Source: an uncultured virus (IMG/VR IMGVR_UViG_3300020048_000037)
Taxonomy: Duplodnaviria > Heunggongvirae > Uroviricota > Caudoviricetes
Direction: 5' to 3' (one strand)
Virus record (IMG/VR): IMGVR_UViG_3300020048_000037
Length of the DNA stretch: 20,000 bases
The notes below the pieces were generated by a model. It was not told the origin of the DNA and made no database searches. It worked only from the letters and a program-made list of their open reading frames with translations. Shown piece by piece: positions 8,172 through 16,573 of the stretch (positions are counted from its first letter, which is position 1; each line of letters starts with the position of its first letter). The translations under genes were made by a program, and so were the position numbers.

Positions 8172-8450
8172 ATGAAGTATATTAAAAAATTTGAATTTTT
8201 AGAATTTGATATACCAGAGAAAATTAAAAAATTGGCTATCGAATTAGATTTTAAATTTAGAACAACAACAAAAGAAGATATGAAAAATAAGACTATCTTC
8301 CAAATAATAAAAGAACTTGGCTTTGATAGTGGAGAATTAAGTGGAGTTGAACTAGGGCAAATTCTAATGTATCAGATGAAATTCAATAAAATGACTGATA
8401 ATGAATTCTTAAAATTCTATAATAATTATAAAAAAAATCCTGAAATTTAA
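8172..8450 (+). CDS. Hypothetical protein with MKYIKKFE N-terminal motif
   Basis: ORF track; preceded by AATATATAC. Confidence 0.75.
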   Translation: MKYIKKFEFLEFDIPEKIKKLAIELDFKFRTTTKEDMKNKTIFQIIKELGFDSGELSGVELGQILMYQMKFNKMTDNEFLKFYNNYKKNPEI

Positions 8451-8466
8451 ATTTCAGGATTTTTTT
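8431..8466. terminator. Bidirectional terminator (perfect 36-bp palindrome) closing the tRNA operon
   Basis: AAAAAAATCCTGAAATTT|AAATTTCAGGATTTTTTT between the convergent CDS and the tRNA cluster. Confidence 0.85.
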
Positions 8467-8467
8467 G

Positions 8468-8538
8468 TTCCATTGTATAGATTCAAACTATACCTCTAAC
8501 ATTCAATGTGTTATGTGCTATCGCTACACCACAAGGAA
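8468..8538 (-). tRNA. trnQ: tRNA-Gln(TTG), atypical (A33, A19:U56, one acceptor-stem mismatch)
   Basis: Minus strand folds TTCCTTG-TG-GTGT-AGCGATA-GCAC-A-TAACA-CATTGAA-TGTTA-GAGG-TATAG-TTTGAAT-CTATA-CAATGGA-A; anticodon at 8504-8506. Confidence 0.7.
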
Positions 8539-8548
8539 ATATAAAATG

Positions 8549-8619
8549 TTCTTACTCTAAGATTCGAACTTAGTCACTCATTTTCAGATGATGAGATGCT
8601 ACCATTACATCAAGAAAGA
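8549..8619 (-). tRNA. trnQ: tRNA-Gln(CTG)
   Basis: TCTTTCT-TG-ATGT-AATGGTA-GCAT-C-TCATC-ATCTGAA-AATGA-GTGA-CTAAG-TTCGAAT-CTTAG-AGTAAGA-A; U1:A72; C31/A39 mismatch; anticodon at 8585-8587. Confidence 0.75.
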
Positions 8620-8620
8620 G

Positions 8621-8706
8621 TCGCCTTGGTGGGGTTCGAACCCACAAGCTCATTATGAGCATCAGTTTCAAAGACTGACATGTTTAGCCAATTCCATCAC
8701 AAGGCA
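8621..8706 (-). tRNA. Class II (long variable arm, Leu-type body) tRNA with Gln anticodon TTG
   Basis: TGCCTTG-TG-ATG-GAATTGGCTAAA-CAT-G-TCAGT-CTTTGAA-ACTGA-T-GCTCA-TAA-TGAGC-TT-GTGGG-TTCGAAC-CCCAC-CAAGGCG-A; anticodon at 8669-8671. Confidence 0.9.
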
Positions 8707-8716
8707 GTGATATTTG

Positions 8717-8788
8717 TTGCTCTATTCGGATTCAAACCGAAACTGCGGACTTCAAAGATCCGATTGCTATCATTACAAATATAGAGCA
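8717..8788 (-). tRNA. trnQ: tRNA-Gln(TTG) with A19:U56
   Basis: TGCTCTA-TAT-TTGT-AATGATA-GCAA-T-CGGAT-CTTTGAA-GTCCG-CAGT-TTCGG-TTTGAAT-CCGAA-TAGAGCA-A; perfect acceptor stem with U1:A72; anticodon at 8753-8755. Confidence 0.85.
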
Positions 8789-8798
8789 TTATATAAAC

Positions 8799-8823
8799 AA
8801 AAAAACCAACTTTAATAATTGGG
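8799..8823 (-). terminator. Weaker second terminator-like hairpin upstream of the tRNA cluster
   Basis: Minus strand CCAAT-TATTAAA-GTTGG followed by T7; its CCCAAT could also pair with ATTGGG of the first hairpin. Confidence 0.5.
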
Positions 8824-8826
8824 CAT

Positions 8827-8883
8827 AAAAAAACCCAATCTATAAGATTGGGTAAAAAAACAGACACGACTCTAACCCAATCA
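8827..8883 (-). promoter_or_regulatory. Transcription attenuator: terminator (8827-8853) plus antiterminator segment (8874-8883)
   Basis: Minus strand ACCCAATCT-TAT-AGATTGGGT-TTTTTT terminator. An upstream GATTGGGT overlapping the leader stop codon is identical to the terminator 3' arm and can sequester the 5' arm ACCCAATC. Confidence 0.8.
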
Positions 8884-8934
8884 AACGAAAGTTTGTTGTT
8901 GTTGCTGAGTCATATTTGAAATATTTTTATTCAT
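8881..8934 (-). CDS. Gln-rich leader peptide MNKNISNMTQQQQQTFV (17 aa; alternative start 8913 gives MTQQQQQTFV)
   Basis: ATG AAT AAA AAT ATT TCA AAT ATG ACT CAG CAA CAA CAA CAA ACT TTC GTT TGA, directly before a terminator and four Gln-anticodon tRNAs. Confidence 0.8.
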   Translation of the reverse strand: MNKNISNMTQQQQQTFV

Positions 8935-8979
8935 TGTAAATTCAATTAAAGTCGTAATGTATATAGTAATATATTTTTA

Positions 8980-9183
8980 TTAAGTTTTTTCTATTTTTAA
9001 ATTTTCTAAATCTTTTTTTGTTGCGATATCAAATAATTGAATATATTCATGTAATTCTAAATCACACAGTCTTTTTTTATTAAACAATTCAAACATTGTT
9101 TTCCATCCATCAACTTCATTCCAATCCAATAGATAATAATATCCTCTAGCTGGTACTTGTGTATAATCAATTAATTCTTTCAT
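8980..9183 (-). CDS. Hypothetical protein (67 aa)
   Basis: ORF track; A-rich initiation region; downstream of the promoter at 9323-9353. Confidence 0.7.
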   Translation of the reverse strand: MKELIDYTQVPARGYYYLLDWNEVDGWKTMFELFNKKRLCDLELHEYIQLFDIATKKDLENLKIEKT

Positions 9184-9206
9184 ATTTATATTTATTTTTA
9201 TTTTTT

Positions 9207-9318
9207 AAAAAGAAACTCTCGCAATAGAAATAAAACAATATAAACTTTTAAAAAATAATGATTAAATTGCGAGAGTTTCAAACGAAAAAAGAAAAAACAC
9301 TGCTTCACAGCAAACAAG
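9207..9318 (-). ncRNA. Putative structured 5' leader or small RNA
   Basis: Follows the promoter: TGCT-GTGA-AGCA GNRA hairpin (9301-9312), a pyrimidine tract, then a perfect 14-bp inverted repeat GAAACTCTCGCAAT/ATTGCGAGAGTTTC (9212-9225, 9266-9279) ending in T5. Confidence 0.45.
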
Positions 9319-12498: not shown

Positions 12499-12675
12499 AT
12501 GAAAGAGACAAATAGAAAAATTGTAATATCAATATCTTTGAATCCAAAATTATTAGAAACTATAAATAATACAGTTTCTAATCGTTCTAAGTTCTTAGAG
12601 AATTGTATAATATCTGAATTGTGTAAAAGTTCTACAATCAAAGAAGAACTTCATAAAAAAATGTTAATATTATGA
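12499..12675 (+). CDS. Ribbon-helix-helix-like small protein (58 aa)
   Basis: MKETNRKIVISISLNPKLLETINNTVSNRSKFLENCIISELCKSSTIKEELHKKMLIL*: ISISL strand and NRSKFLE helix start; ATGA overlap with the endonuclease gene. Confidence 0.75.
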   Translation: MKETNRKIVISISLNPKLLETINNTVSNRSKFLENCIISELCKSSTIKEELHKKMLIL

Positions 12676-14084
12676 TATTAACAAAAATAGTAGAAGTTAA
12701 AATAGCCAATAAAAATATAAATTATTATAAAGTTAAAGGTTATAAGTGTGAAGTTAATGATATAATATGTGTTAAAATAGAAGATTTAACTAAAGGTAGT
12801 CACGAAAAAATAGTAGTTAAATGTGACAATTGTGGTAAAGAAAATGAAATGACATATCATTCTTATAATTGTAATTTTTATAATTGTAATTTTCATTATT
12901 CTTGTTCTAAATGTTCGGTAGAAAAAACTAAAAAAACAAATTTGGAAAAATATGGTGTTGAACACGTATCTCAATCGAAAGACATAAGAGAAAAAATTAA
13001 AAATACTAGTTTGGAAAGATATGGAGTTGAAAATGCATCTCAAAATATAAGTGTACGTAATAAAATTAAAGAAACTTGTTTGAAAAAATATGGAGTTGAA
13101 AGTTATTCAAAAACAGATGAATATAAAGAAAAATTTAAAGAAACAATGATGACACGATATGGTGTTGAACACCAAATGTATACTCAAGAAACTAAAGATA
13201 AAATTAAAGAAACTTGTTTGAAACGATATGGAGTAGAATACATTTTACAAGATATAGACATAAGGAACAAATCTAAAATAACTTGCTTGGAAAAATATGG
13301 AGTAGACAATTATTCAAAAACAGATGAATATAAAGAGAAATTTAAAGATACTATGTTGAATCTATATGGTGTTGAATATCCTACTCAAAATTATGAAATT
13401 AAAGAGAAAATTAAAAAAATTAATTTAGAAAAATATGGTTTTGAATATCCTATACAGAATTCAATTATTTATGAAAAAGTTAAAAATACAAATTTGAAAA
13501 GATATGGTGTTGAACATGTTTCACAAAATAAAAAAATAAAAAATAAAAAAATAAAAACTTGTCTTTTTAATTTTGGTGTTGAATATCCTACCCAATGTGA
13601 TCAAGTTCAAGATAAGATTAAAGAAACATGTTTAAAAAAATATGGAGTGGATAATTATTCTAAGACAGAAGAATGCAAAGAAAAATTTAAAGAAACAATG
13701 TTGGAACGTTATGGTGTTGAAAATCCTCAACAAAGTGAAGAAATTTTTGAAAGAACACAAAAATCAGCGTTTCAGTTAAAGAATTATAAAAATTATTTAT
13801 ATAGAGGAACTTATGAATTAGATTTTCTTATTAAATTTAGTGATAAAATAAAAATTGAGAAGGCTAAGTCTATTGATTATTTCTTCGATAGTAAAAATAA
13901 AAAATATCATCCTGATTTTTATCTACCTGATTATAATTTCATAATCGAAATTAAAAGTAGTTATACTTATGAGTGTGAAAAAGAACAAAATGATGCTAAA
14001 AAAGAAGCCACTATAAATAGTGGCTATAATTTTTTATTCATTGTTGATAAAGATTATACTGAATTGTTTCTAATATTGAAATAA
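12672..14084 (+). CDS. Putative free-standing homing endonuclease: N-terminal Zn ribbon, 12 x 23-aa KYGVE repeats, C-terminal PD-(D/E)xK nuclease
   Basis: CDNC...CSKC; repeats of type KETCLKKYGVExxSQ; C-terminal YE...YHPDFYLPDYNFIIEIKS. Confidence 0.8.
   Translation: MILTKIVEVKIANKNINYYKVKGYKCEVNDIICVKIEDLTKGSHEKIVVKCDNCGKENEMTYHSYNCNFYNCNFHYSCSKCSVEKTKKTNLEKYGVEHVSQSKDIREKIKNTSLERYGVENASQNISVRNKIKETCLKKYGVESYSKTDEYKEKFKETMMTRYGVEHQMYTQETKDKIKETCLKRYGVEYILQDIDIRNKSKITCLEKYGVDNYSKTDEYKEKFKDTMLNLYGVEYPTQNYEIKEKIKKINLEKYGFEYPIQNSIIYEKVKNTNLKRYGVEHVSQNKKIKNKKIKTCLFNFGVEYPTQCDQVQDKIKETCLKKYGVDNYSKTEECKEKFKETMLERYGVENPQQSEEIFERTQKSAFQLKNYKNYLYRGTYELDFLIKFSDKIKIEKAKSIDYFFDSKNKKYHPDFYLPDYNFIIEIKSSYTYECEKEQNDAKKEATINSGYNFLFIVDKDYTELFLILK
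12930..13760 (+). repeat. Intragenic 69-bp degenerate tandem repeat (12 units)
   Basis: [YF]G[VF] codons recur every 69 nt from 12951 to 13710. Confidence 0.85.
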
Positions 14085-15531: not shown

Positions 15532-15816
15532 ATGGTATATGATGAACGAGAAACAGATTATGTTAAACACATAAAGAATAGAACTGCATTAGGTAAATTA
15601 TACGATCAATGTGTGTCACATGGACTTAATTGTAGTGGAGAAGGATGGATGGAGTGGACAAAATTAGCTGATGAATTTGTAAGTATTTTATATGACTTAG
15701 AACATGGACGTAAAATAAATTTAGACATTCTAATAAAATCATATGATACTAAGTTACCAAACAAAATAATTGTAGTACAAAGATTAATAAAATTGATGAA
15801 AATGACAAATGAGTAA
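15532..15816 (+). CDS. Hypothetical protein (94 aa)
   Basis: ORF track; ends VQRLIKLMKMTNE. Confidence 0.75.
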   Translation: MVYDERETDYVKHIKNRTALGKLYDQCVSHGLNCSGEGWMEWTKLADEFVSILYDLEHGRKINLDILIKSYDTKLPNKIIVVQRLIKLMKMTNE

Positions 15817-16573
15817 AAAAACGATTAAAGGTAAAAATTATGAATTTACTCCTGAATGGAGTGGATTTGATATAAATTATGAAGTTGCTGGTTATTTTGA
15901 TCCTAGACCAGTTCTTCAAATATATTTTATTTGGGGTAAATTATTTATTAAGTTACCTTGGAGACATTATAAAAAAATTGAACTAGAAAAGGATATTAAA
16001 GATATCAGGAAAGAAAAATTATCTACATTATGTAATAAAAAAATAAAAATTAAAAAGAAATATAAAAAAGAACTTTATGATCAATGTCAAACACCAAGAT
16101 ATGGTGTAGGAATTTACGATAAAATGTTAACATTTCGTTGGGGTTATAATTCTAAATCATTTCGTTTTCCATGGTATTATATATGGACAAGAACAAGTGT
16201 ACTTTGTATAGATGAAGTTACTTGGTATAATGAAACAATAAAAACTGGACATATGGAATTTTATGACACTAAAAAATGGGAGGGAAAATTATTTAGTGAA
16301 ACACATCCTTTTAAATATACAACAAAATACGGTGAAGAACAAAATTGTTTAGCAACAATAACTGTAGAAGAAAGAGAATGGAGATGGGTATGGTTCACTT
16401 GGTTGAAATATACTAGAAAAATAAGGAAAGACATAGAAGTAAAATTTAGTGATGATATAGGTGAGCGTAAAGGCTCATGGAAAGGTGGTACAACTGGATG
16501 CGGATACACAATGAGAAAAGGAGAAACTCCATATGACACATTAAAAAGAATGGAAAGAGAAAGAAAATTTTAA
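15809..16573 (+). CDS. Hypothetical Trp-rich phage protein (254 aa)
   Basis: ORF track; GERKGSWKGGTTGCG motif; basic insertion containing DIRKEKLSTL. Confidence 0.8.
   Translation: MSKKTIKGKNYEFTPEWSGFDINYEVAGYFDPRPVLQIYFIWGKLFIKLPWRHYKKIELEKDIKDIRKEKLSTLCNKKIKIKKKYKKELYDQCQTPRYGVGIYDKMLTFRWGYNSKSFRFPWYYIWTRTSVLCIDEVTWYNETIKTGHMEFYDTKKWEGKLFSETHPFKYTTKYGEEQNCLATITVEEREWRWVWFTWLKYTRKIRKDIEVKFSDDIGERKGSWKGGTTGCGYTMRKGETPYDTLKRMERERKF

Follow-up and report, generated by a model that had tools for sequence, protein, structure and literature searches.

Enterobacteria control amino-acid operons by leader-peptide attenuation, as in the trp, his, leu, phe, thr and ilv leaders, and in Escherichia coli the pheST attenuator controls phenylalanyl-tRNA synthetase. 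To our knowledge, no attenuator has glutamine (Gln) as its regulatory codon. Phage transfer RNA (tRNA) genes are usually viewed as constitutive passengers, which serve to adjust codon usage or to make good the tRNAs cleaved by host defences. Here, we describe a locus within a 20,000-nucleotide (nt) stretch of DNA from an uncultured member of the Caudoviricetes (IMG/VR record IMGVR_UViG_3300020048_000037; hereafter the window, meaning this whole stretch), in which a short open reading frame (ORF) with a run of Gln codons and a series of alternative RNA helices precede four tRNA-Gln genes. Our analysis indicates that this element is very probably a ribosome-mediated leader-peptide transcription attenuator that gates the four-gene phage tRNA-Gln operon. 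The element would represent a known mechanism applied to phage tRNA genes, a form of control that we could not find published: in the full-text literature, as far as search listings and the openings of abstracts tell, no attenuation of tRNA genes was found.

A Gln-rich leader and mutually exclusive helices precede the tRNA-Gln genes

The features of the locus, which lies on the minus strand, are collected in Table 1. Direct reading of the sequence confirmed the leader ORF that a preliminary description of this DNA had placed at 8934-8881, with its CAG CAA CAA CAA CAA run, and the other parts named there were recovered as well. These are a segment overlapping the TGA stop codon (segment A) and complementary to the 5' arm of a terminator (segment B; 8 of 8 nt paired), the terminator itself at 8853-8827 (a 9-bp hairpin followed by a T-run), four tRNAs with anticodons TTG, TTG, CTG and TTG (all detected by ARAGORN at its 90% threshold) and a closing terminator after the tRNAs (hairpin 8466-8431). 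Gln takes up 5 of the 16 leader codons after the ATG, compared with 1.9% of the 5162 codons in the 24 window ORFs of at least 100 amino acids (aa). These ORFs use 89 CAA and 8 CAG codons, CAA thus making up 92% of the phage's Gln codons, and the presence of three UUG tRNAs and one CUG tRNA is consistent with this CAA-dominated usage.

The hairpin of the first terminator (terminator 1; 8853-8833) consists of 9 bp, four of them G-C, closed by a 3-nt loop and followed by seven T. Between 7900 and 9700 there are two terminator-like sites, the second being the closing hairpin, against 0.1 expected from 50 shuffles, and the predicted fold of 8790-8940 is better than that of all 200 shuffled sequences (z = -4.77). 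Folding revealed two structures that go beyond the preliminary description, namely a hairpin that sequesters segment A (8917-8862) and a weaker second hairpin with its own T-run (8824-8799). The window element comprises five consecutive helices, each mutually exclusive with its neighbours. Their predicted energies are balanced (Table 1), which we count in favour of an attenuator. The last and weakest helix, formed by segments D and E, may act as a weak back-up terminator, which would be disabled whenever terminator 1 is.

Table 1. Features of the tRNA-Gln locus and of its surroundings, numbered from the first nucleotide of the window.
Feature	Position	Strand	Description	Evidence
Promoter-like conserved motif	8958-8997	minus	Overlaps the stop codon of the 67-aa ORF 8980-9183	Near-identical in L005 and L109
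Leader ORF	8881-8934	minus	ATG 8934-8932, 17 sense codons, TGA 8883-8881	Direct reading of the sequence
Putative sensor run	8893-8907	minus	Codons 10-14, CAG and four CAA, five Gln in a row	Sequence reading
Predicted anti-antiterminator hairpin	8862-8917	minus	CAA run and flanks paired with A and its 3' flank	-16.8 kcal/mol, z = -3.66; 0 of 200 shuffles as good
Segment A	8875-8882	minus	Predicted antiterminator 5' arm, begins at the second base of TGA	8 nt, 100% complementary to 8846-8853
Helix A:B	8844-8884	minus	Predicted antiterminator	-12.1 kcal/mol; 1 of 200 shuffles as good
Segment B	8846-8853	minus	Common to antiterminator and terminator	Inverted-repeat pairs with A and C
Helix B:C	8831-8855	minus	Terminator 1	-11.5 kcal/mol; 0 of 200 shuffles as good
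Remainder of terminator 1	8827-8845	minus	Last stem base of the 5' arm (8845), 3-nt loop, segment C (3' arm, 8841-8833), T-run	Terminator scan
Helix C:D	8815-8843	minus		-10.4 kcal/mol; 1 of 200 shuffles as good
Segments D and E	8799-8824	minus	Include the second T-run; D pairs with C or E	Folding
Helix D:E	8797-8826	minus	Followed by a second run of seven T	-4.1 kcal/mol; 17 of 200 shuffles as good
tRNA 1	8716-8788	minus	Anticodon UUG	Rfam tRNA, 46.2 bits; ARAGORN 90% threshold
tRNA 2	8620-8706	minus	Anticodon UUG, 87 nt, long variable arm	ARAGORN default and 90% threshold; Rfam 50.6 bits
tRNA 3	8548-8619	minus	Anticodon CUG	ARAGORN default and 90% threshold; no Rfam match at E <= 10
tRNA 4	8467-8538	minus	Anticodon UUG; position 33 is A, usually U	Rfam 35.9 bits; ARAGORN 90% threshold
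Closing terminator	8431-8466	both	Bidirectional, common to the convergent ORF 8172-8450	16 pairs, flanking A and T runs
Homing endonuclease	12672-14084			Family search
Acb3-type inhibitor of CBASS (cyclic oligonucleotide-based antiphage signalling system)	15809-16573			Pfam PF25187, E = 1.6e-43

Related elements match their leader codons to the tRNAs downstream

Relatives of the element were retrieved by patterns of the stem segments alone, with no criterion concerning leader or tRNAs. In viral contigs, the A-B-C pattern matched 10 loci, three of them with tRNAs (Gln in L005, four Leu in L001 and five Leu in L002). The other seven (L003, L004 and L006-L010) have neither a tRNA nor a T-run and were rejected as chance matches. 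The pattern of the terminator by itself matched 84 viral loci, which together with the window gives 91 distinct instances. Six of these have an exact core of segment A at a distance of 20-60 nt upstream, and all six are followed by same-strand tRNAs of one amino acid: Gln in the window and L005, Leu in L001, L002 and L050, and Glu, with both anticodons, in L043. Each of these six leaders ends at segment A and is rich in the amino acid of its tRNAs. Among the remaining 85 instances, same-strand tRNAs occur within 1400 nt in five and are missing from 80. L061, L013 and, more weakly, L021 combine an imperfect segment A with a mixed leader whose codons correspond to the mixed tRNAs downstream; L047 is a plain gene-end terminator before nine mixed tRNAs, and in L030, which has no segment A, tRNAs for Ala and Glu lie at least 375 nt downstream.

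A scan of metagenomes added 20 loci, including Gln (L112 and L109), Leu (L106), Ala/Gly (L120) and three mixed cassettes. L121, L122 and L124 were set aside, having no leader ORF, and in L107, L113, L116 and L117 a leader is present with no tRNA in the available flanking DNA. Counting viral contigs, metagenomes and the window, there are 18 distinct A-B-C elements, of which 15 have a leader (an ORF that begins with ATG, spans 8 or more codons and ends at A). Downstream tRNAs, searched for over 1200 nt, follow in 11 of these 15; L002 and L050 were excluded from the 18 because their A-to-B spacer is longer than the 40 nt allowed by the pattern. The preliminary description had raised the question of whether homopolymeric-codon leaders in related phages match the identity of their tRNAs, and leaders that match their tRNAs are present in related contigs in Gln, Leu, Glu, Ala/Gly and mixed cassettes. 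At the nucleotide level, a blastn search with 8400-9250 against 50,697 phage records gave no match. The window stretch itself was present, whole or in part, in 11 of the 12 sequencing runs listed, all recorded as DNA metagenomes, and no RNA run was among them.

The agreement between leader and tRNAs was quantified in 11 elements over the six codons ending 12-15 nt before segment A. Of these 66 sensor codons, 41 are cognate to the tRNAs that follow, where amino-acid composition predicts 6.9, and the value of 41 was reached in 1 of 100,000 trials in which tRNA sets were shuffled among elements, numbers that are somewhat flattering since the six-codon stretch was chosen after the 13-nt spacing described below had been seen. 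When one element per amino-acid class was kept, 27 of 42 sensor codons were cognate, a value reached by 1 of the 5040 permutations, the true pairing. The direction of the codon-tRNA match is not in doubt.

Within the Gln subfamily, the window, L005, L112 and L109 align over leader and switch with a mean column identity of 71%, and the Gln codons of these four leaders vary only between CAA and CAG. L005/L111 and L112 have a homologous leader ORF with the same start, Gln run and stop at segment A. The Gln run and the antiterminator of the preliminary description are thus kept in the homologous Gln clusters (L005/L111, L112 and L109), the CAA/CAG changes being synonymous. Segments D and E are also found in L005 and in L111, the latter with a perfect 6-bp D:E stem, and are absent from L112 and L109 in the alignment of Gln cassettes. 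The L109 leader has an in-frame TAG (around 1190-1200) two codons ahead of the TGA that overlaps segment A. Either translation ends earlier there, or this is a sign that the phage decodes TAG as an amino acid.

Four further units (L095, L099, L098 and L102), reached by way of their tRNA clusters, have other stems, in which segments A, B and C differ together from those of the window, as seen in exact-complement searches and folds rather than in an alignment-based count of covariation. L095 and L099 precede tRNAs for Trp, His, Phe, Lys and Ser, and their leaders contain 13-14 consecutive codons for exactly these amino acids. In both, segment A is an exact complement of B, and the C:B pairing is made through G-U wobbles. 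In L098, A:B is perfect and B:C has one mismatch, and L102 has a 12-nt A:B helix. The viral records behind L001, L002, L013, L043 and L050 are fragments (CheckV completeness 11-32%) with 17-37 tRNA matches each; their tRNAs form 43 clusters (ARAGORN), at least 12 of which stand behind a leader-terminator unit, as judged by eye.

Masked folds place the decision at the last cognate codon

To model a translating ribosome, we used a mask that extended 15 nt upstream and 12 nt downstream from the first base in the aminoacyl-tRNA site (A site). In classical attenuators the choice is a kinetic one, made while the 3' arm of the terminator is still to be transcribed, and the masked folds were therefore run on a transcript ending just after segment B. 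For the window, free RNA of this length gave an A:B helix probability of 0.00. Placing the A site on any of the five Gln codons raised it to 0.99; the value was 0.56 at the codon after the Gln run, and 0.00 at the last two codons and at the stop codon. These folds reproduce in silico the logic put forward in the preliminary description, in which a ribosome at the stop codon hides segment A and a ribosome stalled on Gln codons leaves it free to pair with B, and they add to it termination without translation.

In each of the 11 elements folded, a masked ribosome leaves segment A free up to the last cognate codon and no further, with an A:B probability of 0.83-1.00 at this codon and of 0.05-0.61 one codon later. 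Five elements have the start of the last cognate codon 13 nt before segment A, and two have it 14 nt before; the distance is 16 nt in one further element and either 12 or 9 nt in the remaining three (range 9-16 nt). A constant distance of about one ribosome edge fits a signal read by a ribosome, and would be unexpected for an RNA that binds a protein or a tRNA.

Proposed mechanism and alternative explanations

The comparison of related elements supports an arrangement that is real and conserved and, in the window, specific for Gln. Read-through of terminator 1 and the way it depends on charged tRNA-Gln are inferred from the sequence, as are a kinetic competition among the helices and the trigger in nature. 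Transcription would begin upstream of the leader, where the motif at 8997-8958 may act as promoter. A near-identical stretch is found at the equivalent position ahead of the L005 and L109 Gln leaders, and related promoter-like motifs, read by eye as was the motif in the window, precede the leaders in G001-G005. The leader would then be translated. If it is untranslated, or the ribosome has gone, the CAA run would lock segment A, the B:C helix would form and the polymerase would stop at 8832-8827; a ribosome that reaches the TGA would cover segment A, with the same outcome. When charged tRNA-Gln is scarce, the ribosome would wait on a Gln codon, melting the locking hairpin and leaving segment A exposed, which could then pair with B before C is made, so that the terminator would be blocked and the tRNAs transcribed. 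The tRNA product would relieve the stall and close a negative feedback loop. Attack by a host anticodon nuclease is one possibility among several for the trigger, and a codon-usage gap, loss of tRNA during infection or glutamine starvation may also serve.

The same sequence may be read in other ways. The hairpin could be the ordinary terminator of the upstream 67-aa ORF, with the mini-ORF and the repeat present by chance and the tRNAs driven from a promoter of their own. Short ORFs are frequent at 22% G+C (22.2% in the window), and the stem is common in phages, where, as counted above, 85 of 91 instances lack an exact segment A and 80 of these 85 lack a same-strand tRNA nearby. Against such a reading, the whole arrangement is conserved in relatives, with leader codons that match the tRNAs. 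Furthermore, the independent promoter between 8827 and 8790 that the preliminary description had named as a competing source of the tRNAs was not seen in a minus-strand scan for sigma-70-like sites, a scan of low power (17 sites in 1.8 kb against 16.6 expected). In L112, L109, L061 and L097, the pattern match, which ends in the T-run, is 16-22 nt from the first tRNA, a gap that probably leaves no room for a separate promoter, and the promoter-like motif is conserved upstream of the leader and not after the terminator. An ordinary terminator is, in our view, scarcely plausible. A switch that works without translation is also highly improbable. In such a switch, the CAA run would pair either with segment A or, in the manner of a T-box-like specifier, with the tRNA-Gln anticodon, and a tRNA or a protein that binds the leader RNA would decide, the ORF being incidental. 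It would account for the complementarity of the CAA run to part of segment A, which it locks in the window, and a codon run could in principle pair with anticodons. However, 15 of the 18 elements retain the start codon, the reading frame and a stop codon located at segment A or directly behind it, the Gln codons vary synonymously, and the mixed leaders carry many codons that match mixed tRNA sets, which is impossible for a single specifier. The 9-16 nt spacing, in turn, fits a ribosome edge, and Rfam gave no match above the gathering score for the T-box or for any other known leader family.

A third alternative accepts the attenuator and changes what it senses, which would be glutamine or nitrogen starvation, or the general speed of translation, so as to time tRNA expression during infection. 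A stalled ribosome is indeed blind to the difference between a missing tRNA and a missing amino acid. Against this stand the facts that extra tRNA is no cure for amino-acid starvation and that the match in identity between leaders and tRNAs (Gln, Leu, Glu and Ala/Gly) is needed by a sensor of tRNA supply and not by a timer, and we consider this alternative improbable.

We therefore favour a ribosome-mediated attenuator that responds to the supply of tRNA-Gln, and several points besides the choice of the six-codon stretch weigh against it. The dimensions of the ribosome mask were assumed from general knowledge of footprints. At equilibrium, folds carried through segment C gave the terminator a probability of 0.95-0.96 at every masked ribosome position in the window; a purely thermodynamic switch is thus unsupported and kinetic trapping would be needed. 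The locking hairpin is missing in most relatives, 8 of 11 having an A:B probability of 0.77-1.0 in free RNA, which means that such relatives would read through untranslated and that the locking part of the design is not general. The leader lacks a Shine-Dalgarno sequence, though this would be usual if the host belongs to the Bacteroidota, and the model presumes that transcription and translation are coupled in the host. The promoter scan was of the sigma-70-like kind, and Bacteroidota-type promoters were not systematically scanned; sequences with a Bacteroidota-type promoter consensus were noted by eye in the relatives. Finally, two of the four tRNAs fall below the default threshold of ARAGORN and one has an A at position 33, and the low-scoring tRNAs may be weak or non-functional.

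A wider proposal, which we regard as rather unlikely and put forward tentatively, is that the cassette is one module of a family of swappable codon-demand sensors, which large phages would use to run each tRNA cluster as a self-limiting, inducible replacement supply, and that the version in the window serves counter-defence. It would provide four divergent, nuclease-resistant substitutes for tRNA-Gln, set apart by the A at position 33, the mismatched anticodon stem or the long variable arm seen in one gene each, that would be made only when the host tRNA-Gln is destroyed or too scarce for the CAA-dominated Gln codons of the phage.

The tRNA genes, related units and genomic surroundings

Detection of the four tRNAs was uneven: two were found by ARAGORN at its default setting, three, with matches at 8621-8706, 8717-8788 and 8468-8538, scored above the gathering score of 29 bits in Rfam and all four were found by ARAGORN at the 90% threshold. 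The four putative tRNA-Gln genes are strongly divergent, and 12 aligned tRNAs of this kind from the window and its relatives have a mean column identity of 59%. All four window tRNAs start with U1 and have A73, and in one of them the anticodon stem is closed by a C-A mismatch and the acceptor stem contains a U-U mismatch. The long variable arm of tRNA 2 is a feature of Leu, Ser and Tyr tRNAs. A long-arm UUG tRNA is kept in L005/L111 (L005 1370-1455) as well as in the window, and because of this conservation it is not a one-off error.

Among the related units, a conserved motif of about 9 nt was noted by eye in L095-L105. In many clusters, whether or not they have an attenuator, it is found 15-30 nt ahead of the first tRNA. 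The motif is too near the tRNA to be a -35 box, and may be a processing or binding site. In Leu cassettes, a small ORF (about 60-85 aa) lies between the attenuator and the tRNA-Leu array (L001 around 1280-1470; L002 around 1600-1860), and would therefore be co-regulated with the tRNAs. L113 (1201-1271, minus strand), on a 6.6-kb metagenome contig, has the same stems and a 15-codon leader without a codon run, and is located about 137 nt upstream of a gene for an RtcB RNA ligase (ORF 3-1064; Pfam E = 4e-44). It would be noteworthy to find an enzyme that repairs cut tRNAs under the control of such a ribosome-sensing switch. Among 80 RtcB relatives in genomes of Bacteroidota, however, the regions of up to 330 nt upstream contained eight terminator-like hairpins, none of which had a matching segment A.

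Most ORFs of the window belong to no family, and the assigned ones, which include an FkbM-type methyltransferase in addition to those of Table 1, point to a phage accessory region. The Acb3 match is an anti-defence gene 7 kb from the tRNA operon. On the plus strand, between 9384 and 12136, five consecutive ORFs end in a near-identical C-terminal pentapeptide, two of them being clear paralogues, and none of the five matched a Pfam or PHROG family.

Comparison with known attenuators

If the proposed mechanism is correct, the phage would gauge the speed of decoding codon by codon and make a given tRNA only on demand. A textbook mechanism described for amino-acid synthesis genes and one synthetase operon would then extend to non-coding RNA genes, with a product that is itself the molecule sensed. 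Stems that stay constant while the sensor codons change with the tRNAs show how such sensors could be re-targeted in evolution, and the element may be of use as a small, re-programmable component that senses the availability of tRNAs in cells.

T-box riboswitches (RF00230) resemble the window element in making a choice between terminator and antiterminator in response to one tRNA species. They differ from it in binding uncharged tRNA directly, without translation, and in having a conserved specifier loop and T-box sequence. A search of 8200-9300 with all Rfam families at E <= 10 found no T-box, and the only leader-family matches were two weak ones to Thr_leader, located on the closing terminator (27 and 25.7 bits, against a gathering score of 55).

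The resemblance to the trp, his, leu, phe, thr and ilv leaders extends to the short ORF with its run of regulatory codons, to the mutually exclusive antiterminator and terminator, and to the proposed role of ribosome position in deciding between them. As in the trp leader, where the 1:2 helix ensures termination without translation, the helix between the CAA run and segment A would play this part in the window. Unlike the attenuators of amino-acid operons, the window element is found in a phage, would control tRNAs rather than enzymes, so that its output is the sensed molecule, and possibly has a second terminator wired into its chain of helices. The pheST attenuator of E. coli, with its pheM leader, is similar in that sensing of an amino acid governs a component of the machinery that decodes this amino acid; the product of pheST is the enzyme that charges the tRNA, whereas the product of the window operon is the tRNA itself.

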